Below are positions 3,728-45,808 of a stretch of 64,000 nt of DNA, piece by piece. The DNA comes from Candidatus Tayloriibacteriota bacterium (lineage in GTDB: Bacteria > Patescibacteriota > Minisyncoccia > Phycocordibacterales > UBA6065). The stretch is from the NCBI GenBank assembly GCA_016215405.1, contig JACRJQ010000007.1:71297-135296 (forward strand), read 5' to 3'. Made by a program: the position numbers and the translations under genes. Numbering within the stretch: position 1 is the stretch's first letter; every line of letters starts with the position of its first letter. The notes beneath the pieces are model-generated. The model made no database searches, was not told the DNA's origin, and saw only the letters and a list, made by a program, of their open reading frames with translations.

Positions 3728-4645
3728 CTAGACCTTCAGATATCTTCGTACCGCGAGATAGCTCGATATAGCGCCGAGAAGGATGCCTACGCCTATGATA
3801 AGGGCTGACACCTGGGCGAAATTGGCGGTGTAGTAGTCGAAAAGGCTGAATCCGCTGAAGAAGGTCTCAGTGATGGACGACACCCAGTACGTCACCGGAT
3901 AGAAGACGACGAGCGTGGCGAGAGCCGACACGACGCCGTACATGACGCCCGAAATCACGAACGGCCCGCGGATGTAGCGGTTAGACGCGCCCACGAGCCT
4001 CATCACCGATATCTCCTCTCGGGCGATGTAGATGGCGAGGCGTATGGTGTTGAGCGTGATGAGGATGGATATCGCGATAAGGACTATCGTTATAGCGAGG
4101 CCTATCTTCCTCGATCCGTCGATCATCCTCGTAAGAGAGTCGATAGCCGCCTTATTCTGATAGTAATTAACCTTGTCTATGAATTGGCCGTTCTCGCCGG
4201 ACTCCGAATCGAGGAATTTCGCGATGCCTTCATACTGCGAGGTCTCTTTCGCCCTTATGTTGAGGATCGCGCCAAGAGGGTTCTCTCCGAGCTCTTCGAG
4301 GGCCTGAAGGGTTATCTCGTCGTTCTCATGCTGAGCCTTGAAATTCTCGAGAGCCTGGTCGCGCGAGACGTATTCGACCTGAGCGACCTCGGGAAGAGCC
4401 TCGACCTTGTTCCTGAGCGCGAGTATCTCCTCCTCGTCGGCCGAAGGCGCGAAGTAGACGTTCACGTCGACCTTGGAGCGTATCTCGTCGAGAGACGAAT
4501 TGAGGAGAGCGCTCGCGAACATGAGAGAGCCCAGAACGAAAAGGGTCAACGTCATGATGAGGACCGAAGAGAGCGACACGAAGCCGTTCCTCCAGAACGA
4601 CACGAAGCCTGATTTTATGATGCGTCGGGTGTTGAGCCAGAACAT
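3728..4645 (-). CDS. ftsX: cell division ABC transporter permease FtsX
   Basis: 305 aa; 4 TM helices with a large periplasmic loop; immediately downstream of ftsE. Confidence 0.8.
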   Translation of the reverse strand: MFWLNTRRIIKSGFVSFWRNGFVSLSSVLIMTLTLFVLGSLMFASALLNSSLDEIRSKVDVNVYFAPSADEEEILALRNKVEALPEVAQVEYVSRDQALENFKAQHENDEITLQALEELGENPLGAILNIRAKETSQYEGIAKFLDSESGENGQFIDKVNYYQNKAAIDSLTRMIDGSRKIGLAITIVLIAISILITLNTIRLAIYIAREEISVMRLVGASNRYIRGPFVISGVMYGVVSALATLVVFYPVTYWVSSITETFFSGFSLFDYYTANFAQVSALIIGVGILLGAISSYLAVRRYLKV

Positions 4646-5337: not shown

Positions 5338-5419
5338 AGAAGGTCGTATTGGGGACGGCAGAGCATCCGATGCCAGAAAGCGGCATGCATGTATTCTATC
5401 ATATCCCATACCCCTTATT

Positions 5420-6289
5420 TTAAAGGGTTTTCTCGGCTTCGATGAAGATATCGATGTCCCCCTCGAGCACCGCGTCGACGTTCGACGTCTCGACGTCGGT
5501 CCTGTGGTCCTTGACCATCTTATAGGGGTGCAGAACGTAAGAGCGTATCTGATTGCCCCATTCGATGTCGGTAGTCTTGGAGATATACATGCCCTTCTCT
5601 TTGGCCTGGCGCTCCTCTTCTTGCCTCTTATAGAGCTTGGCTTGGAGGATGTCCATGGCGCGCGACCTGTTATCCGCCTGAGAGCGCTCAGAATCCACAT
5701 GGACAGCGATCTTCGTCGGAAGATGCACGAGCCGGACCGCGGTCTCGCGCTTGTTCACGTTCTGGCCGCCGGGACCGGACGACCGCGCGAATTCGAGCCG
5801 TATGTCGTCGGGATTCACGACGAATTTCTCGGCCTTCTCGAACTTCGGGATCACCTCTACGAGCGAGAACGAAGTATGGCGCTGCGACTTCGCGTTAAAG
5901 GGTGATATGCGGACGAGCCGGTGCACGCCCGATTCGTTCTTGAGGATGCCGTAGGCGCCCTTCCCCTCTATCTCGACCGTGACGTTCCTGTAGCCGCCGT
6001 GGTCGTTCTGGTTCTGATGGAGGAATCTCAAAGACCACCCCTTGCGGTCGAAGTACCTCATATACATCTCGAAAAGGATGCGCGAGAAGTCTTCGGCATC
6101 GTCGCCTCCCGCGCCGGAGAATATGGTCATTATGGCGTTCCCTTTCTCGTACTTTTCGACCTCCGCCATCTCGGATTTGAGCTGATTGAGCTCCTTGAGG
6201 ATCGATTGCGCTCGGTCCTTATTCTCCCAGAACTCGGCGTCGGCCATAAGGACCTCTATCTCCGCTATCCTTTTCTGCTTTTCTGACAT
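5420..6289 (-). CDS. prfB: peptide chain release factor 2
   Basis: SPF tripeptide anticodon motif (RISPFNAKSQRHTSF) and GGQ motif (SGPGGQNVNK); 289 aa; no upstream frame that would indicate a programmed +1 frameshift. Confidence 0.85.
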   Translation of the reverse strand: MSEKQKRIAEIEVLMADAEFWENKDRAQSILKELNQLKSEMAEVEKYEKGNAIMTIFSGAGGDDAEDFSRILFEMYMRYFDRKGWSLRFLHQNQNDHGGYRNVTVEIEGKGAYGILKNESGVHRLVRISPFNAKSQRHTSFSLVEVIPKFEKAEKFVVNPDDIRLEFARSSGPGGQNVNKRETAVRLVHLPTKIAVHVDSERSQADNRSRAMDILQAKLYKRQEEERQAKEKGMYISKTTDIEWGNQIRSYVLHPYKMVKDHRTDVETSNVDAVLEGDIDIFIEAEKTL

Positions 6290-6788: not shown

Positions 6789-6861
6789 GCCACCTTAGCT
6801 CAGCTGGTAGAGCAATACTTTCGTAAAGTAGAGGTCCCCGGTTCGATCCCGGGAGGTGGCT
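6789..6861 (+). tRNA. tRNA-Thr (anticodon CGT)
   Basis: Acceptor GCCACCT/AGGTGGC, anticodon loop TTCGTAA, T-arm CCCGGTTCGATCCCGGG. Confidence 0.85.
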
Positions 6862-6950
6862 CAGAAAACTAAAAGCCGCTTTTGCGGACTTTTAGTTTTC
6901 TGAGCCACCTAAGAGCGATCGAATCGCTCTGTCCCGGGATCGAAGAGGTT
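6851..6950. repeat. tRNA 3'-flank mirror element (hairpin incorporating the acceptor 3' strand, plus an antisense copy of acceptor and T-arm)
   Basis: aggtggctcagaaaactaaaag-[ccgcttttgcgg]-cttttagttttctgagccacct is a 22-bp perfect inverted repeat; a downstream gagcgatcgaatcgctc hairpin follows; then cccgggatcgaa is the reverse complement of the tRNA T-loop/stem. Confidence 0.6.
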
Positions 6951-6963
6951 CTCCTATATTTCT

Positions 6964-7115
6964 GAGGGATTCCTATTCCGAAGAAATGGGAAACCTGTAC
7001 TGCGGCTGTAAGCCGAGATTCTCGGGAGGAATCGAAAGGGTTCCCTGTTGTCTTCGAGGACTTCTATCCGAGAAAACTGAAACCTATACTGCCGCCGTAG
7101 GCAAAGACCCTCGGA
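6964..7115 (+). repeat. two imperfect tandem repeats of about 62 nt (period 89)
   Basis: gagggattcctattccgaagaaatgggaaacctgtactgcggctgtaagccgagattctcggg versus gaggacttctatccgagaaaactgaaacctatactgccgccgtaggcaaagaccctcgga. Confidence 0.5.
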
Positions 7116-7292
7116 TCGCATCCTGAATTATTTTGCTTTCGTAATACCTCCAAGCGGCCTGTCGTTAACTTCCCTCCCGCTTAAGCTTTTATACCCATCA
7201 TGAAAGACGTCTTCTGGGCATTCTTCTCCCTTTTCTATTGCATCACGATGGCGATCATCGAAAGACTGAAAGGCAAACACAGAAAATAGCCG

Positions 7293-9262: not shown

Positions 9263-9424
9263 GCGTGTTATCGATAACCTTCCTAAATGGAAGCTACAGA
9301 TAGTACGTAAGCGCCGCAGGAGAGGTGTCAGGGCGGGACTCGGTCACAGGTCGTTTTCTGCTGAAAACGCCCGCCACCCCGCCTCGCGCTTTACGGATAT
9401 GCTCCCAGCATATCCTCACGCTCC

Positions 9425-9487
9425 GGCTTTCGAGTCCCTACTCCGCAAAGCAAAAAGCGTCCGAGAATGGACGCTTTTTGCTTTATG
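9425..9487. repeat. tRNA 3'-flank mirror element downstream of tRNA-Asp
   Basis: 16-bp perfect hairpin aaagcaaaaagcgtcc/ggacgctttttgcttt adjacent to the tRNA 3' end; ttcgagtccc at about 9429-9438 is an antisense copy of the tRNA-Asp T-loop/stem. Confidence 0.5.
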
Positions 9488-9562
9488 CGCGAGTGACGGG
9501 ACTCGAACCCGCGACCTCTTCCGTGACAGGGAAGCGCTCTAACCAAACTGAGCTACACCCGC
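9488..9562 (-). tRNA. tRNA-Asp (anticodon GTC)
   Basis: Minus-strand cloverleaf GCGGGTG...CTTCC-CTGTCAC-GGAAG...GCGGGTTCGAGTCCCGT-CACTCGC-G. Confidence 0.85.
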
Positions 9563-11221: not shown

Positions 11222-11386
11222 AGGGAAAGTATAGCAAAAGACGCCTTACTGGACGTTTGTCATACATCTTGCGGAAGGGTTTGAATTATCATGAATCGCT
11301 AAGTCTTTTGCTGCAGAAGCCAGCAAAAGCCCAAGTGTTCGCGATCCCGCCTCGCCCGTCTCGCTTCGCTCGACATGGCTGCGACC

Positions 11387-11477
11387 TTCAAATCCAACCC
11401 GACGAACGTCTCAGGCGTTCGTCTCCCGCAACAAGCATGAAAAAAACCGCTATCAATAGCGGTTTTTTTCATGCTTG

Positions 11478-11484
<7 letters not shown>
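11387..11484. repeat. tRNA 3'-flank mirror element downstream of tRNA-fMet
   Basis: Perfect palindrome gcaacaagcatgaaaaaaaccgctat/atagcggtttttttcatgcttgttgc includes the tRNA 3' end; an antisense acceptor copy cccgcaaca; a gacgaacg...cgttcgtc hairpin insertion; an antisense T-arm copy ttcaaatccaaccc. Confidence 0.55.
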
Positions 11485-11551
<67 letters not shown>

Positions 11552-30833: not shown

Positions 30834-30919
30834 ATATTAAGCGCGCTTCTATGTCGCTAATAGTAGCAGGTATAAGGAGAGGTATCGAGGGCGGGGTTCG
30901 AACGCGAGCCTTCATTTGG

Positions 30920-31005
30920 CGGAGACGGAGAGAATTTCGGTCCTTACAGGACCAGTACCCCGATTGGCGCGAGTACGCGGCTCAATCGGGCTTCGAATCT
31001 CTCAC
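30920..31005. repeat. 86-bp direct repeat, copy 1 (duplicated tRNA-Ser mirror element)
   Basis: Identical to 31076-31161 by eye. Begins with ggagacggagaga, antisense of the tRNA-Ser 3' end; ends with ttcgaatctctcac, antisense of the T-loop/stem; two internal hairpins. Confidence 0.8.
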
Positions 31006-31075
31006 ACCCCTATCGATGATTCGGTCACAGGTTTTCGCTTGCTAGCGAAACCCGCGACCCCGCCTCGCGCCGTCG

Positions 31076-31161
31076 CGGAGACGGAGAGAATTTCGGTCCT
31101 TACAGGACCAGTACCCCGATTGGCGCGAGTACGCGGCTCAATCGGGCTTCGAATCTCTCAC
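31076..31161. repeat. 86-bp direct repeat, copy 2 (tRNA-Ser mirror element)
   Basis: Same 86 bp as copy 1, period 156. Followed by a gcaggcgtaccacgcctgc hairpin and a sense-strand ctcgtctccgcca. Confidence 0.8.
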
Positions 31162-31227
31162 GCAGGCGTACCACGCCTGCTCGTCTCCGCCAAACAAAAA
31201 ACGGCACTTTCGTGCTCGTTTTTGTAT

Positions 31228-31319
31228 TGGCGGAGACGGAGAGATTCGAACTCTCGAACCAGTTTTACCCGGTTAACACCTTAGCAAGGTGCCGCTTTCG
31301 ACCACTCAGCCACGTCTCC
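31228..31319 (-). tRNA. tRNA-Ser (anticodon GCT), CCA encoded
   Basis: Type II tRNA. Acceptor GGAGACG/CGTCTCC, anticodon loop TTGCTAA, long variable arm, T-arm CGAGAGTTCGAATCTCTC, G73 plus CCA. Confidence 0.85.
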
Positions 31320-41972: not shown

Positions 41973-41980
41973 CCGACATA

Positions 41981-42005
41981 AAAAATCCGCCTCGGGCGGA
42001 TTTTT
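41981..42005 (+). terminator. intrinsic terminator after tRNA-Ile
   Basis: aaaaatccgcc-tcg-ggcggattttt. Confidence 0.6.
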
Positions 42006-42116
42006 ACCCGGTGCGAGACGGAACCGAAGGCGTTTCAACCGACAGCGAAAACGATCCTCAGCCACATAGAAGAAGCGGTAGCGAGGGTTTATCAAGCGAG
42101 GCTCTTCTCTGAAAAG

Positions 42117-45105: not shown

Positions 45106-45495
45106 GGGGATGATCGGCCTAGACATGCGATTCCCTTCCCTTTGCGCGCGATAGAGCTCCGACAACTCTTTAAACTGCCGGAAACCACAAATGCTAAATC
45201 CGTTAAATCGCCGTTTACGGCTAACGATTTTTCATTCGCTTACGCAATAGCCTAAGCGACATCGCACTCCTCGCATTCCTGGCGCGGGAGAGAGCGGTGT
45301 TATAGATCCAGGATAGAGCCCGACCCGCTTCGGTCCCGCTCGAAAGGCTTCGGCCTCATGAAGCTCGGCGCCCGCGCGTTCTGGAACTCTTAGAGCGCGT
45401 CCGCTTAAATCCGCCTTCGGCGGAAAGACTTCCTACATCGCGTAGACACAATCGGAAATTTCGCTTGCACCCGAGTTCGATTCTCGGCATCTCCA
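45106..45495 (+). ncRNA. ssrA: tmRNA (ssrA), one-piece; encoded tag ANDFSFAYAIA
   Basis: Begins GGGGAUGAU 15 nt after smpB. The 5' GGGGAUG pairs with the 3' CAUCUCC including a G3-U70 wobble and A73 discriminator (alanine identity). T-arm CCGAGUUCGAUUCUCGG precedes it. An in-frame GCU AAC GAU UUU UCA UUC GCU UAC GCA AUA GCC UAA (45220-45255) resembles the E. coli ANDENYALAA tag. Confidence 0.75.
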
Positions 45496-45590
45496 CAAAG
45501 CAAGTCGCCCGCAAGGGCGGCTTTTGCTTTGTGGAGATGAGTCGTGCCGGGGGGGGCACGACGTCCGAGAATCGAAGCCCGGTTGAGCAT
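45488..45590. repeat. tRNA-like 3'-flank mirror element downstream of tmRNA
   Basis: catctccacaaagcaag-[tcgcccgcaagggcgg]-cttttgctttgtggagatg long hairpin including the acceptor 3' strand; then gtcgtgcc-gggggg-ggcacgac hairpin; then ccgagaatcgaa, antisense of the tmRNA T-arm. Confidence 0.5.
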
Positions 45591-45808
45591 AATTTATGAG
45601 CAAAGCGAAGTAAATTATCCAACCGCGGGTACTGGTCCTGTAAGGACCGATAAGCGCACTCGCGATCTCGGCTCCACTGCACCATCACCCTTATCCGCGA
45701 TTGGTATCATATATGATACCAATCGTAATCTAACGGTCTGAGGGATCGCGCGTAACCGATGCTCAGACAAATGTATTACACTAAAATGCGAGAACATAAC
45801 ATCCACAT

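Follow-up and report, generated by a model that had tools for sequence, protein, structure and literature searches.

A hairpin and a tRNA mirror downstream of tRNA-Asp form the front end of a folded DNA insertion belonging to an apparently undescribed family of Patescibacteria

The analyzed stretch of DNA (64,000 nt, referred to below as the window) carries a tRNA-Asp gene on the minus strand, and the 3' part of this gene is both mirrored and repeated downstream of it. The features of the locus, listed in the direction of the tRNA strand, are the following:

9487-9562, minus strand: tRNA-Asp(GTC) gene (ARAGORN; Rfam tRNA, 69.8 bits; sequence read)
9507-9488, minus strand: segment A, positions 54-73 of tRNA-Asp, mirrored and repeated downstream
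9308-9486, minus strand: whole extra stretch relative to empty orthologous sites (syntenic comparison)
9447-9484, minus strand: perfect 16-bp hairpin with a 6-nt loop (repeat search, I1)
9329-9446, minus strand: structured unit with the mirror as its 5' arm
9429-9446, minus strand: mirror arm B, GCGGAGTAGGGACTCGAA (repeat search, I2; family statistics; co-variation in orthologues)
9343-9428, minus strand: type-2 internal module (16 related copies elsewhere; repeat search, I3 and I4; motif search; fold)
9321-9342, minus strand: direct copy C of tRNA-Asp from position 56 on (repeat search, D1; fold; weak covariance-model match)
9301-9307: conserved CGTACTA, the flank past the insertion

Segment A consists of the T-loop TTCGAGT, the T-stem 3' strand CCCGT, the acceptor 3' strand CACTCGC and the discriminator G. 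The hairpin begins 3 nt past the tRNA end, and its 16-nt arms (9447-9462 and 9469-9484, AAAGCAAAAAGCGTCC / GGACGCTTTTTGCTTT) are 100% complementary, as had been stated in the initial annotation, which placed a 16-bp perfect hairpin directly 3' of tRNA-Asp. The G+C core GCGTCC/GGACGC encloses the loop ATTCTC and is bordered by a complementary A-tract on the 5' side and by TTTTTGCTTT on the 3' side. With its G+C-rich stem-loop, the T-run directly after it and its place at the 3' end of a transcription unit, the hairpin is shaped like an intrinsic terminator of the bidirectional type. It was not flagged by a simple terminator scan, because pairing of the A-tract with the T-tract extends the stem over the T-run, which reflects the rule of the tool and not the sequence. 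The hairpin also sits at the apex of the long palindrome that A makes with its mirror: in the predicted fold of 9310-9512 it caps a continuous stem with the tRNA 3' half (z = -7.8).

The mirror arm B can be divided into two parts. B2 (9429-9438, GGGACTCGAA) is the exact reverse complement of tRNA-Asp positions 54-63, the two arms of this inverted repeat (9429-9438 and 9498-9507, GGGACTCGAA vs TTCGAGTCCC, the latter being the T-loop and the T-stem 3' strand) having 10 nt and 100% complementarity; thus the antisense of the T-loop and T-stem noticed earlier past the hairpin is real. In the 64 kb GGGACTCGAA occurs only at these two places, the shuffle expectation being 0.41 copies. B1 (9439-9446) corresponds, in degenerate form, to the reverse complement of the remaining T-stem and of the acceptor 3' strand, its acceptor mirror being GCGGAGT (9440-9446) against the expected GCGAGTG, in agreement with the partial antisense of the acceptor strand described initially.

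The mirror is merely the 5' arm of a larger structured unit, and neither this unit, nor the direct copy of the mirrored tRNA segment that closes it (D1), nor the fact that the unit is an insertion missing in some close relatives had been mentioned in the initial annotation. The module downstream of B reads AGCCGGAGCG, hairpin 9395-9415, GCGAGGCGGGGT (9376-9387), hairpin 9349-9372 and TGTGAC. It is followed by C, where CGAGTCCCG (9334-9342) is a copy of the T-loop and T-stem identical to tRNA-Asp, forming a 9-nt direct repeat with 9497-9505, while the acceptor part of C is decayed (CCCTGAC...). The sense strand of the unit is predicted to fold as a three-way junction, in which C pairs with B2 in the closing helix GGGACTCG/CGAGTCCC; the covariance-model match over 9329-9442 is weak. 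The hairpin, the mirror and the downstream module are identical in sequence in an independent Logan assembly (L001, SRR12113407), and thus they are no assembly or sequencing artefact, which disposes of the sequencing errors considered at the outset.

The same organization was found behind other tRNA genes of the window and behind the tmRNA gene:

6863-7029, plus strand: instance behind tRNA-Thr(CGT) (6789-6862); covariance model R1 at 6931-7029, E = 2e-8
11222-11476, minus strand: instance behind tRNA-Met (11477-11551); sequence reading and motif search
30917-31227, minus strand: two instances behind tRNA-Ser(GCT) (31228-31319); R1 at 31082-31161 and 30926-31005, E = 1e-21
45497-45680, plus strand: instance behind the tmRNA gene (45106-45496); R1 at 45563-45661, E = 1e-25

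Behind tRNA-Thr(CGT), where the initial annotation had already seen the same arrangement as at tRNA-Asp, a palindromic terminator is followed by the acceptor mirror TGAGCCACCT (6901-6910), a small hairpin (6912-6930), the T-arm mirror CCCGGGATCGAA (6933-6944), a type-1 module with a variant of hairpin hp2 and a partial direct copy; a degenerate second unit extends to about 7110. The two loci differ in their internal modules (type 1 here, type 2 at tRNA-Asp), a distinction absent from the initial annotation. At tRNA-Met the order is a perfect palindromic terminator, mirror GTTGCGGG, small hairpin, mirror GGGTTGGATTTGAA and a type-2-like module (GCGAGGCGGGAT, 11338-11355). The first unit behind tRNA-Ser(GCT) comprises a terminator, the acceptor mirror TGGCGGAGACG, a small hairpin, the T-arm mirror GAGAGATTCGAA, a type-1 module and a direct copy, beyond which a type-2 module in truncated form precedes another, identical type-1 unit with the end CTCTCCGTCTCCGCCA. 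The tmRNA gene is followed by a terminator, mirror GTGGAGATG, a small hairpin, mirror CCGAGAATCGAA, a type-1 module, a mini-hairpin and a decayed direct copy. Overall, full units are present at five of the six tRNA/tmRNA transcription-unit ends in the window, the sixth, tRNA-Ile(TAT), having only a short acceptor-end palindrome and no module, and the covariance model R1 finds copies in the window only beside tRNAs.

Two types of modules can be distinguished, type 1 (hp1-GTA-hp2) and type 2 (as at tRNA-Asp, with 16 related copies in other Patescibacteria loci), and the helices of both are backed by compensatory changes. In the consensus structure, 14 of 21 predicted pairs show such changes, and the complementarity of B to A/C corresponds to helix P2. 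In particular, the stem of hp2 varies among GGTCC/GGACC, GAACC/GGTTC, GATCC/GGATC, GAAGC/GCTTC and GCCGC/GCGGC with the TGTAA loop being constant, and the type-2 helices co-vary between copies on both sides of the invariant internal loop GGAG/CGAG. The inner boxes TCGAA and ACCGA are conserved. Both modules contain tandem G.A motifs (GAGC..GCGAA in hp1 of type 1, GGAG/CGAG in type 2), which are typical of RNA. Wobble pairs lean moderately to the tRNA strand (about 19 G.T vs 7 A.C, a hand tally over the consensus pairs and type-2 helices).

The mirror was proposed initially to be a recurrent element 3' of tRNA genes, and this is confirmed by a survey of 142 tRNA genes from about 100 fetched Patescibacteria genome fragments and the window. 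A mirror, defined as at least 11 matches of 12 to the reverse complement of the gene's own T-loop and T-stem within 200 nt downstream, is present in 72 of the 142 genes, nearly all isoacceptors being covered, with none found upstream (0/142), which is far beyond chance at the family level. At 55 loci representing many isoacceptors, B2 matches its own tRNA in 11.4 of 12 positions on average, and it is better preserved than B1. C is intact (at least 11/13) in 27 of 63 loci; when the reference segment was taken from a different tRNA, this level was reached in 5 of about 600 comparisons. Thus, at the level of sequence, B follows the functional tRNA far more faithfully than C does. Similarly, a tRNA or tmRNA gene on the same strand precedes 76 of 108 occurrences of the hp2 21-mer GTACTGGTCCTGTAAGGACCG, mostly at a distance of 90-160 nt; these tRNAs span most isoacceptors, one module serving more than 20 different tRNAs.

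Co-variation of the T-arm with its mirror at orthologous tRNA-Asp loci, suggested earlier as a check, is observed in three cases. tRNA-Asp of L105 has the T-stem CCCAT, the mirror ATGGGACTCGAA and a perfect acceptor mirror GCGCGAGTG; that of L109 has the T-stem CCCGT and the mirror GATGACGGGACTCGAA; in L030 the T-loop TTCGAAT is matched by the mirror ATTCGAA. The apical hairpins are different at each locus, and about a quarter of type-1 loci have no terminator between the tRNA and B, so that the unit must be co-transcribed with the tRNA there. In several genomes (L017, L041, L050, L052, L053) C carries CCA where A does not. This difference at positions 74-76 fits either distinct origins of the copies or C merely abutting the native flank. 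It is no evidence for an RNA intermediate, since CCA is encoded in 16% of tRNA genes with or without a unit.

Comparison with related syntenic genomes shows that the units are insertions, as some of these genomes have empty sites consisting of the tRNA, a plain terminator and the next gene. The tRNA-Asp, tRNA-Thr(CGT) and tRNA-Met loci are all empty in L106 and L107, where merely 40-50 nt with a plain terminator separate the 3' end of tRNA-Asp from the conserved CGTACTA. The window is occupied at all three loci, L105 at tRNA-Asp and tRNA-Thr(CGT), and L109 at tRNA-Asp and tRNA-Met. In L105 a unit lies between two tRNA-Thr genes and is associated with a perfect 19-nt direct repeat CGATCCTGGACGTTGGCTC, the spacer past C being similar to that of L109. 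Tandem arrays are seen at tRNA-Ser of the window, in L045 and L034, and at tRNA-Asp and tRNA-Thr of L105. Sometimes two neighboring units enclose a cargo of 1-4 kb, located past C of the first and ahead of B of the second, such as a pterin-4a-carbinolamine dehydratase gene in L052 or 3.7 kb with HTH and KilA-N genes in L017; no recombinase was seen in either of these two cargoes. The units thus accrete in tandem, sometimes enclose cargo and lie between direct repeats beginning in the T-loop, and the hairpin and mirror at tRNA-Asp are the front end of a folded DNA insertion of roughly 180 bases.

As read from the sequence on the tRNA strand, the plan of a unit is A (56-73), the apical hairpin (usually a terminator), B (positions 54-73 in inverted form, in many units interrupted by a small hairpin), the module, C (a direct copy of 56-73) and the native flank. 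We suggest, with a probability of about 0.5, that the hairpin and mirror make up the proximal portion of a non-autonomous integrative element, which is small (about 120-200 nt) and encodes no protein. The mobile unit would extend from tRNA position 56 through the module end and would enter by site-specific recombination within the universally conserved T-loop (TT|CGA), at 55|56. The element's copy would then take over the tRNA 3' end, and the original 3' end, pushed to C, would decay. In the single-stranded form, provided by replication or by DNA uptake (cf. the type IV pilus genes of the window), B may anneal to the element's own 56-73 segment, creating a folded attachment site; the B/56-73 duplex would have the sequence of the target tRNA gene, with the module as the fork, which would be the reason for the presence of B. 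The logic would be that of the forked-hairpin attP(+) of phage CTXphi or of the integron attC, with a putative recombinase encoded elsewhere in the genome and acting in trans. The expected circle junction is ...CTGTAAGGAC or ...GTGAC joined to CGA-N59N60-T-stem of the same unit.

The acting enzyme is pure inference, since no recombinase, transposase or reverse transcriptase recurs beside the elements (871 ORFs clustered from about 100 loci of 8 kb); the clustered families near the units are syntenic housekeeping ones only (EF-G-like, YraN, membrane proteins). A Pfam scan of 66 window ORFs revealed no recombinase among the best 25 of 64 families (E up to about 1e-25), these 25 comprising housekeeping and type IV pilus functions only. 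No free, circular, plasmid or phage copy of a unit was found. Moreover, the retargeting of near-identical modules to more than 20 tRNAs, each copy being tailored to its own tRNA, is not explained by a simple integrase model. The palindrome sometimes takes in bases that flank the tRNA in empty relatives (gaaaac at tRNA-Thr, aag at tRNA-Met), which may point to partial templating of the mirror at the locus itself.

Among known systems, the CTXphi attP(+) is a forked hairpin, in which two inverted dif-like sites about 90 bp apart anneal in one strand (PMC3089051). Sequence and predicted folds show two such inverted target-like arms in the units (B vs A/C, positions 54-73). As in CTXphi and IMEX, copies in opposite orientation about 85-90 nt apart can rebuild a duplex mimic of the target with the intervening DNA as a fork, the integrated form is composed of a hybrid site, cargo, inverted arm, spacer and hybrid site, tandem arrays are common, and the recombinase is not element-borne. 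Unlike them, the units are targeted to tRNA or tmRNA genes of any kind, between the T-loop and the 3' end, instead of dif, where the host XerCD integrates such elements by exchanging a single pair of strands; they have arms tailored to each target, mostly lack cargo, and have a conserved three-way-junction module as the spacer. Integron attC sites are likewise imperfect palindromes recognized as folded single strands (single-strand recognition of the units being our proposal), with co-variation conserving structure rather than sequence, extrahelical features on one arm, and arrays with short or gene-sized cargo at one chromosomal platform. However, the units have no integron integrase nearby, no attI, no Pc promoter and no GTTRRRY/RYYYAAC boxes; their inferred crossover lies at the inner stem end beside the module and not in the outer R box, and their arms copy the adjacent tRNA.

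The units also resemble short gene-less hairpin-rich intergenic repeats found near terminators, REP/BIME and IS200/IS605-derived PATEs, which are presumably mobilized in trans with single-stranded hairpin recognition; the conserved GTA(C) 5' of the hp2 foot may be compared with GTAG of REPs. In contrast to these repeats, the units are found strictly at tRNA 3' ends, have target-derived arms of 18-20 nt and an unrelated sequence, and no RAYT or TnpA gene is linked to them. Genomic islands at tRNA and tmRNA genes that cross over in the T-loop and their derivatives devoid of an integrase (CIMEs), including the tandem Dehalococcoides ssrA islands (PMC3146451), share with the units the far end marked by a direct repeat of the tRNA 3' segment, the new tRNA 3' end provided by the element, tandem accretion at one tRNA and presence varying among relatives. 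The units differ in being 120-200 nt long, in lacking an integrase, in having an inverted core copy with a co-varying folded module, and in occupying most tRNA loci of a genome instead of one.

If the integrative-element reading is correct, most Patescibacteria tRNA and tmRNA genes are followed by an unnoticed family of structured mini-elements, although these genomes, about 1 Mb in size, are otherwise believed to have lost their repeats. tRNA genes would then be a third target class for the integration of folded single strands, beside CTXphi/dif and integron attC, with the puzzle of one module retargeted to every tRNA, and the family would account for the broken assemblies and strange "partial tRNA" calls at these loci in CPR MAGs. 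Plasmids, phages and integrases are seldom observed in this phylum, and the copies that carry cargo point to a way in which genes may flow there.

An alternative, which we consider unlikely though deserving attention, is that B, the module and C constitute a cis-encoded structured RNA used by the host and transcribed with or after the tRNA, either as a tRNA-like minihelix (acceptor stem, T-stem and a giant "T-loop") or as an antisense or guide RNA directed at its own tRNA's 3' half (processing, quality control, modification, decoy). The terminator-less quarter of type-1 loci makes an RNA role possible, and the co-varying helices, the preference of wobble pairs for the tRNA strand and the tandem G.A, K-loop-like motifs are consistent with it, as are the near-saturation of the window tRNA loci with units and the tRNA-like topology (B1, small hairpin, T-stem 5' strand, expanded loop, T-stem 3' strand, acceptor 3' strand, N73(CCA)). 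The better agreement of B2 than of C with the tRNA is expected if B pairs with the tRNA itself, and box C/D-like guide systems exist in CPR bacteria (PMC12045711). On the other hand, close relatives lack units at all three orthologous loci, hence the units are dispensable. Tandem, truncated, decayed and cargo-flanking copies look selfish, a strong terminator separates the tRNA from B in most loci with no room for a separate promoter, and there is no matching Rfam family: the gathering-threshold scan of the window with Rfam 15 yielded only tRNAs and tmRNA, and permissive scans of the Ser and Asp flanks gave only chance-level matches.

It is less probable still that the system is programmed by nucleic acid, with the B and C arms guiding one trans-acting enzyme to any tRNA gene or tRNA, instead of a protein-read att site. 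One possible version of it is programmable self-retargeting integration, where the arms are rewritten from the target, giving more than 20 specificities with one module; another is a cis-encoded set of guide or mimic RNAs, one per tRNA, for the T-arm and acceptor end. An IS200/IS605-like mode of insertion (3' of TTCGA, right end ACCGA) would agree with the boundaries but would not account for the left end copying the target, and is a possible sub-variant at most. Dual guides and box C/D-like G.A motifs were the reason to consider IS110 bridge RNAs and TIGR-Tas arrays. They were rejected, as no IS110-type or Tas (Nop-domain) gene recurs near the units, and B and C are directed at the same positions and are paired to one another instead of being exposed in open loops (compared according to PMC12045711).

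Slightly more doubtful is the possibility that the units are scars of classical islands with double-stranded integrase sites, that is, attL/attR remnants of a prophage or ICE, or CIME-like leftovers, in which case the module would simply be the arm region of attP to which proteins bind. Integrases with a crossover in the T-loop have as their hallmark direct repeats that extend from there to the tRNA 3' end, as reportedly established by Williams (Nucleic Acids Res, 2002). Such a hallmark is seen here, the distal direct repeat starting in the T-loop (9 nt at tRNA-Asp) and both empty and occupied alleles existing at one site, and there are cases with cargo; tandem islands are known to have accreted at tRNA and tmRNA genes, for instance at ssrA of Dehalococcoides (PMC3146451). 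However, the units have no ORF, and none of about 100 loci has an integrase nearby. Compensatory upkeep of hairpins is unexpected for duplex protein-binding arms, such arms need no inverted core copy about 85 nt away, and one module is common to more than 20 different tRNAs.

A very improbable explanation dispenses with an element, the palindrome having grown locally from the terminator hairpin via template switching or fold-back synthesis in replication (quasi-palindrome extension). The palindrome is indeed unbroken from the tRNA 3' end across the locus-specific spacer and terminator at several loci (Thr and Met in the window, Asp in L105, Asp and Met in L109), and tRNA-Ile(TAT) has a short acceptor-end palindrome without a module. 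This explanation is largely refuted by the modules of types 1 and 2 common to about 100 genomes, and it leaves unexplained C, the small hairpin splitting the mirror, the abrupt end of the latter at position 54 and the better preservation of B2 than of B1; still, local extension may contribute to keeping B matched to A. Finally, a convergent opposite-strand tRNA gene or pseudogene sharing the bidirectional terminator with tRNA-Asp is refuted, since the mirror co-varies with the adjacent gene throughout the family: although 9429-9446 on the plus strand (TTCGAGTCCCTACTCCGC) resembles a T-loop, a T-stem 3' strand and an acceptor 3' strand, there is no ARAGORN or Rfam tRNA call at 9425-9450 of that strand, the matching T-stem 5' strand is missing upstream, and the sequence copies the neighboring gene whatever its identity, tmRNA included.

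Several other classes were considered and discarded. The ends of the units are not mutual inverted repeats (on the left there is a locus-specific end, on the right hp2), which does not agree with MITEs or casposon-like elements, and the flanking repeat of about 18-20 nt, tRNA positions 56-73, compares with duplications of 2-10 bp in MITEs. A retroelement primer-binding site is not suitable, as the mirror reproduces the genomic flank instead of the mature tRNA with its CCA tail, and synthesis primed from B would proceed away from the module. Group I introns of Patescibacteria tRNAs, located in the anticodon loop (PMC13011429), are unrelated.

A literature search on CPR, tRNA, MITE and integrase, as well as on the hp2 sequence, yielded no description of the family, which is therefore apparently undescribed. 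Among the IMG/VR viral contigs there are no matches to the exact hp2 21-mer, one to an 18-mer and three to a degenerate hp2 pattern, all inside coding regions and with no stem complementarity, and thus due to chance. Exact copies of the hp2 21-mer were found in 102 DNA stretches, all from Patescibacteria MAGs; the 21-mer is also a handy lineage marker.

The perfect hairpin and the antisense of the T-arm described behind tRNA-Asp in the initial annotation belong to a longer feature, which extends past the mirror (the inverted copy of the tRNA 3' segment) into a structured stretch. On the minus strand the gene is followed by three bases, then the hairpin, then the mirror stretch, and further downstream by a module and a direct tRNA copy:

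9487-9562, minus: tRNA-Asp(GTC)
9447-9484, minus: perfect 16-bp hairpin, AAAGCAAAAAGCGTCC / GGACGCTTTTTGCTTT, with a 6-nt loop
9429-9446, minus: mirror stretch GCGGAGTAGGGACTCGAA
Next, minus: module, in order AGCCGGAGCG; hairpin 9395-9415; GCGAGGCGGGGT; hairpin 9349-9372; TGTGACCGA
9334-9342, minus: CGAGTCCCG, direct copy of tRNA-Asp from position 56, abutting the module (D1, a 9-nt direct repeat in the repeat search)

The repeat search recovered the hairpin and a perfect 10-nt inverted repeat, GGGACTCGAA (9429-9438) against the T-loop/T-stem TTCGAGTCCC (9498-9507), with no further occurrence of the mirror 10-mer in the 64 kb. The acceptor mirror, reported as partial, is indeed degenerate, and the acceptor portion of the direct copy is decayed. 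The suspicion that the match might vanish upon correction of sequencing errors can be dropped, as the flank is identical in an independent Logan assembly, which excludes such errors. The hairpin is shaped like an intrinsic terminator (G+C core, T-run and complementary A-tract), the region from the T-loop through the mirror is predicted to form one long stem (z = -7.8), and the tRNA strand of 9326-9446 is predicted to form a three-way junction closed by a stem of the mirror and the direct copy. The independent short-read Logan contig (L001, 2612 nt) starts inside tRNA-Asp, consistent with assemblies breaking at tRNA-linked repeats.

The organisation, as had been proposed, is shared with tRNA-Thr(CGT): a common unit plan is found 3' of both genes and, in the window, also after the tmRNA gene, the second tRNA-Met and tRNA-Ser, which has two units in tandem. 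In the labels used here, positions 54-73 of the tRNA are A and the apical hairpin is t. The acceptor mirror is B1, and a small hairpin of variable sequence is h0; B2 mirrors the T-loop and the 3' strand of the T-stem and has an invariable TCGAA end. The folded, conserved stretch is the module, and C is the direct tRNA copy from position 56 onward. Type 1 modules (in the window at Ser, tmRNA and Thr) have the structure hp1 - GTA - hp2, with hp2 being CTGGTCC-TGTAA-GGACCG, and type 2 modules are those at Asp and Met in the window. Either type closes with GACCGA, after which come N59 N60 and then the T-stem 3' strand. The parts of the units look modular and shuffled.

The consensus of 22 aligned type 1 units is a three-way junction comprised of P2 (B2 paired with C), hp1 and hp2, with compensatory changes at 14 of the 21 predicted pairs; in hp2, whole pairs change in the stem and the TGTAA loop is constant. 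In type 2, two short helices covary on both sides of an invariant GGAG/CGAG internal loop. A hand tally over type 1 pair-type counts and type 2 helices gives about 19 wobble pairs versus 7 A.C mismatches on the tRNA strand, and this moderate excess points to the tRNA strand as the one that folds, either as RNA or as single-stranded DNA. Matches of the covariance model built from the type 1 alignment are confined, in the window, to the sides of tRNA/tmRNA genes; at tRNA-Asp the match is weak and spans exactly 9329-9442.

Syntenic loci of related genomes were fetched via homologues of the neighbouring ECF sigma factor, and the occupancy of three sites was compared.

Occupancy of the 3' flanks of tRNA-Asp, tRNA-Thr(CGT) and the second tRNA-Met
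Window: Asp, type 2; Thr, type 1; Met, type 2-like
L105: Asp, occupied; Thr, occupied; Met, not seen in the fetched locus
L109: Asp, occupied; Thr, empty; Met, occupied
L106: all three empty
L107/L108: all three empty

Thus, the units are insertions, polymorphic between relatives. Downstream of tRNA-Asp, L106 and L107/L108 have a plain terminator, then the conserved CGTACTA and the small ORF also present in the window, with no mirror, module or covariance-model match at this gene. At the occupied orthologous loci the mirror covaries with the T-stem, in the comparison that the initial annotation proposed: L105 has CCCAT in the tRNA, ATGGGACTCGAA in the mirror and a perfect acceptor mirror GCGCGAGTG, and L109 has CCCGT and GATGACGGGACTCGAA. 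Between its two tRNA-Thr genes L105 carries a further unit, with a perfect 19-nt direct repeat on either side; past C its spacer resembles that of L109. Tandem or truncated units are common (window Ser and Thr loci, L045, L034, L105), and cargo may lie between C of one unit and B of the next: a pterin-4a-carbinolamine dehydratase gene in L052, and 3.7 kb including HTH and KilA-N genes in L017. The latter, behind tRNA-Glu, is bounded by inverted repeats of ~60 nt (925-1000, 4270-4345), also encodes four proteins without assigned function, and may be a transposon in its own right, nested within the unit array.

An RNA used by the host, either as a tRNA-like minihelix or as an antisense/guide RNA to its own tRNA, would agree with the lack of a terminator ahead of B in about a quarter of loci and with RNA-like G.A motifs in the modules, but close relatives dispense with the units, and the decayed and tandem copies look selfish; we consider this explanation unlikely.

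L107, lacking 3' units, has short insertions within or just before tRNA-Thr(CGT) and tRNA-Asp (3778-3867 and about 5379-5464), and so does L108. In each, the start of the tRNA (12 nt, to TAGCT) is duplicated before the sequence departs from it (gccaccttagctGTTTTGgtagataac...; gcgggtgtagctGTTTTGattagttaag...); they may represent a different insertion targeting the 5' side or D-loop, or its scar.

In one-genome-per-species bacterial and archaeal DNA, the exact hp2 21-mer was found in 102 stretches, all from Patescibacteria MAGs (the window's own relatives are annotated as Paceibacterota/Parcubacteria). A tRNA/tmRNA gene lies upstream on the same strand in 76 of 108 hp2 occurrences, typically at 90-160 nt, the isoacceptors including Arg, Met, His, Trp, Leu, Gly, Glu, Ile, Val, Ser, Pro, Lys, Gln, Cys, Phe, Ala and Asp. 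Type 2 modules give 16 matches in the fetched Patescibacteria loci. Flanks were adequate for 142 tRNA genes; in 72 of these, the reverse complement of the gene's own T-loop and T-stem (at least 11/12) lies at most 200 nt downstream, and no such mirror was found upstream of the same genes (best 10/12). B2 matches its own tRNA at 11.4/12 on average, the two variable T-loop bases included (AATCGAA with TTCGATT, ATTCGAA with TTCGAAT, ACTCGAA with TTCGAGT, GGTCGAA with TTCGACC). C is intact (at least 11/13) in 27 of 63 loci, the T-stem part being better preserved than the acceptor part.

Classical duplex attL/attR scars would leave both the hairpin covariation and the inverted arm unexplained, and seem quite improbable. 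One module serves more than 20 tRNAs. Local palindrome growth alone, a very improbable explanation, cannot account for modules common to different loci. A convergent tRNA pseudogene is ruled out by ARAGORN, Rfam and family-wide covariation.

In the window and loci L002-L103, the discriminator is followed by CA (CAA, CAG, CAC) in most tRNA genes, and the full CCA is encoded in about 16%, with or without a unit. Several C copies have CCA where the tRNA gene copy has none, as expected if the native flank follows C or if C is another allele than A; given this base rate, CCA on C does not indicate an RNA intermediate.

The units are best read as small integrative or insertion elements at tRNA 3' ends, with unusual architecture and abundant across a phylum. 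Inverted arms annealing with forked intervening DNA are the design of CTXphi attP(+), where two inverted dif-like sites ~90 bp apart form a forked hairpin (PMC3089051), and the proposed folded-site mechanism echoes integron attC sites. The nearest systems also include integrase-less derivatives of tRNA-targeting islands and REP-like hairpin repeats. Each of these, including the Xer-exploiting elements (IMEX), shares some logic with the units, but for none of them are all the defining features seen in the units. As, moreover, the units match no Rfam family and yielded no copy in viral contigs and no published description in a literature search, we rate them as a variant of tRNA-3'-end integrative/insertion elements not described before.

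The sites are polymorphic for insertion, the direct repeats start in the T-loop, and tandem accretion and occasional cargo are observed; the inverted arm follows the sequence of the functional tRNA, and the folded module covaries. The most likely mechanism is site-specific recombination of a folded mobile unit. This unit would consist of positions 56-73, the apical hairpin, B and the module, entering by recombination at a specific site within the invariant T-loop (TT|CGA in the tRNA, AC|CGA at the module end). It would provide a new tRNA 3' end, pushing the old one to C, where it would decay, so that B matches A better than C. Single-stranded B would anneal to the element's own 56-73 segment, hence the need for B, with the duplex presenting the target gene sequence and the module forming the fork. 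That palindromes continue unbroken across locus-specific spacers suggests a contribution of template-switch correction at the hairpin to keeping or rewriting B. No recombinase recurs near units in the fetched loci, none is among the 25 families listed by the Pfam scan of the window, and the search of viral contigs turned up no free form. A type IV pilus/DNA-uptake-type set is encoded in the window (a prepilin peptidase, T2SSF, two T2SSE ATPases and five N-methyl pilin-like proteins), relevant if the elements move as single-stranded DNA from outside.

At 41975-42040, tRNA-Ile(TAT), with an anticodon unusual for a bacterium, has a short terminator palindrome reaching into the acceptor end (GGTGCG), with no T-arm mirror or module behind it in the window; the palindrome is a remnant or, alternatively, an initial stage in the making of a mirror. 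The mini-hairpin CGCG-TACT-CGCG or its reverse complement occurs at 31120-31131 and 45651-45662 of the window and in many loci (L010, L016, L026, L042-L044 among them), at the hp1 apex or between hp2 and C, and GAGCG-NAG-CGAA is a recurring hairpin cap. A 30-codon ORF, ATGAAAGACGTC...TAG (7200-7292, plus strand), separates the decayed Thr-linked units from the endonuclease V gene; it is absent from L106, where the intergenic space is 25 nt.
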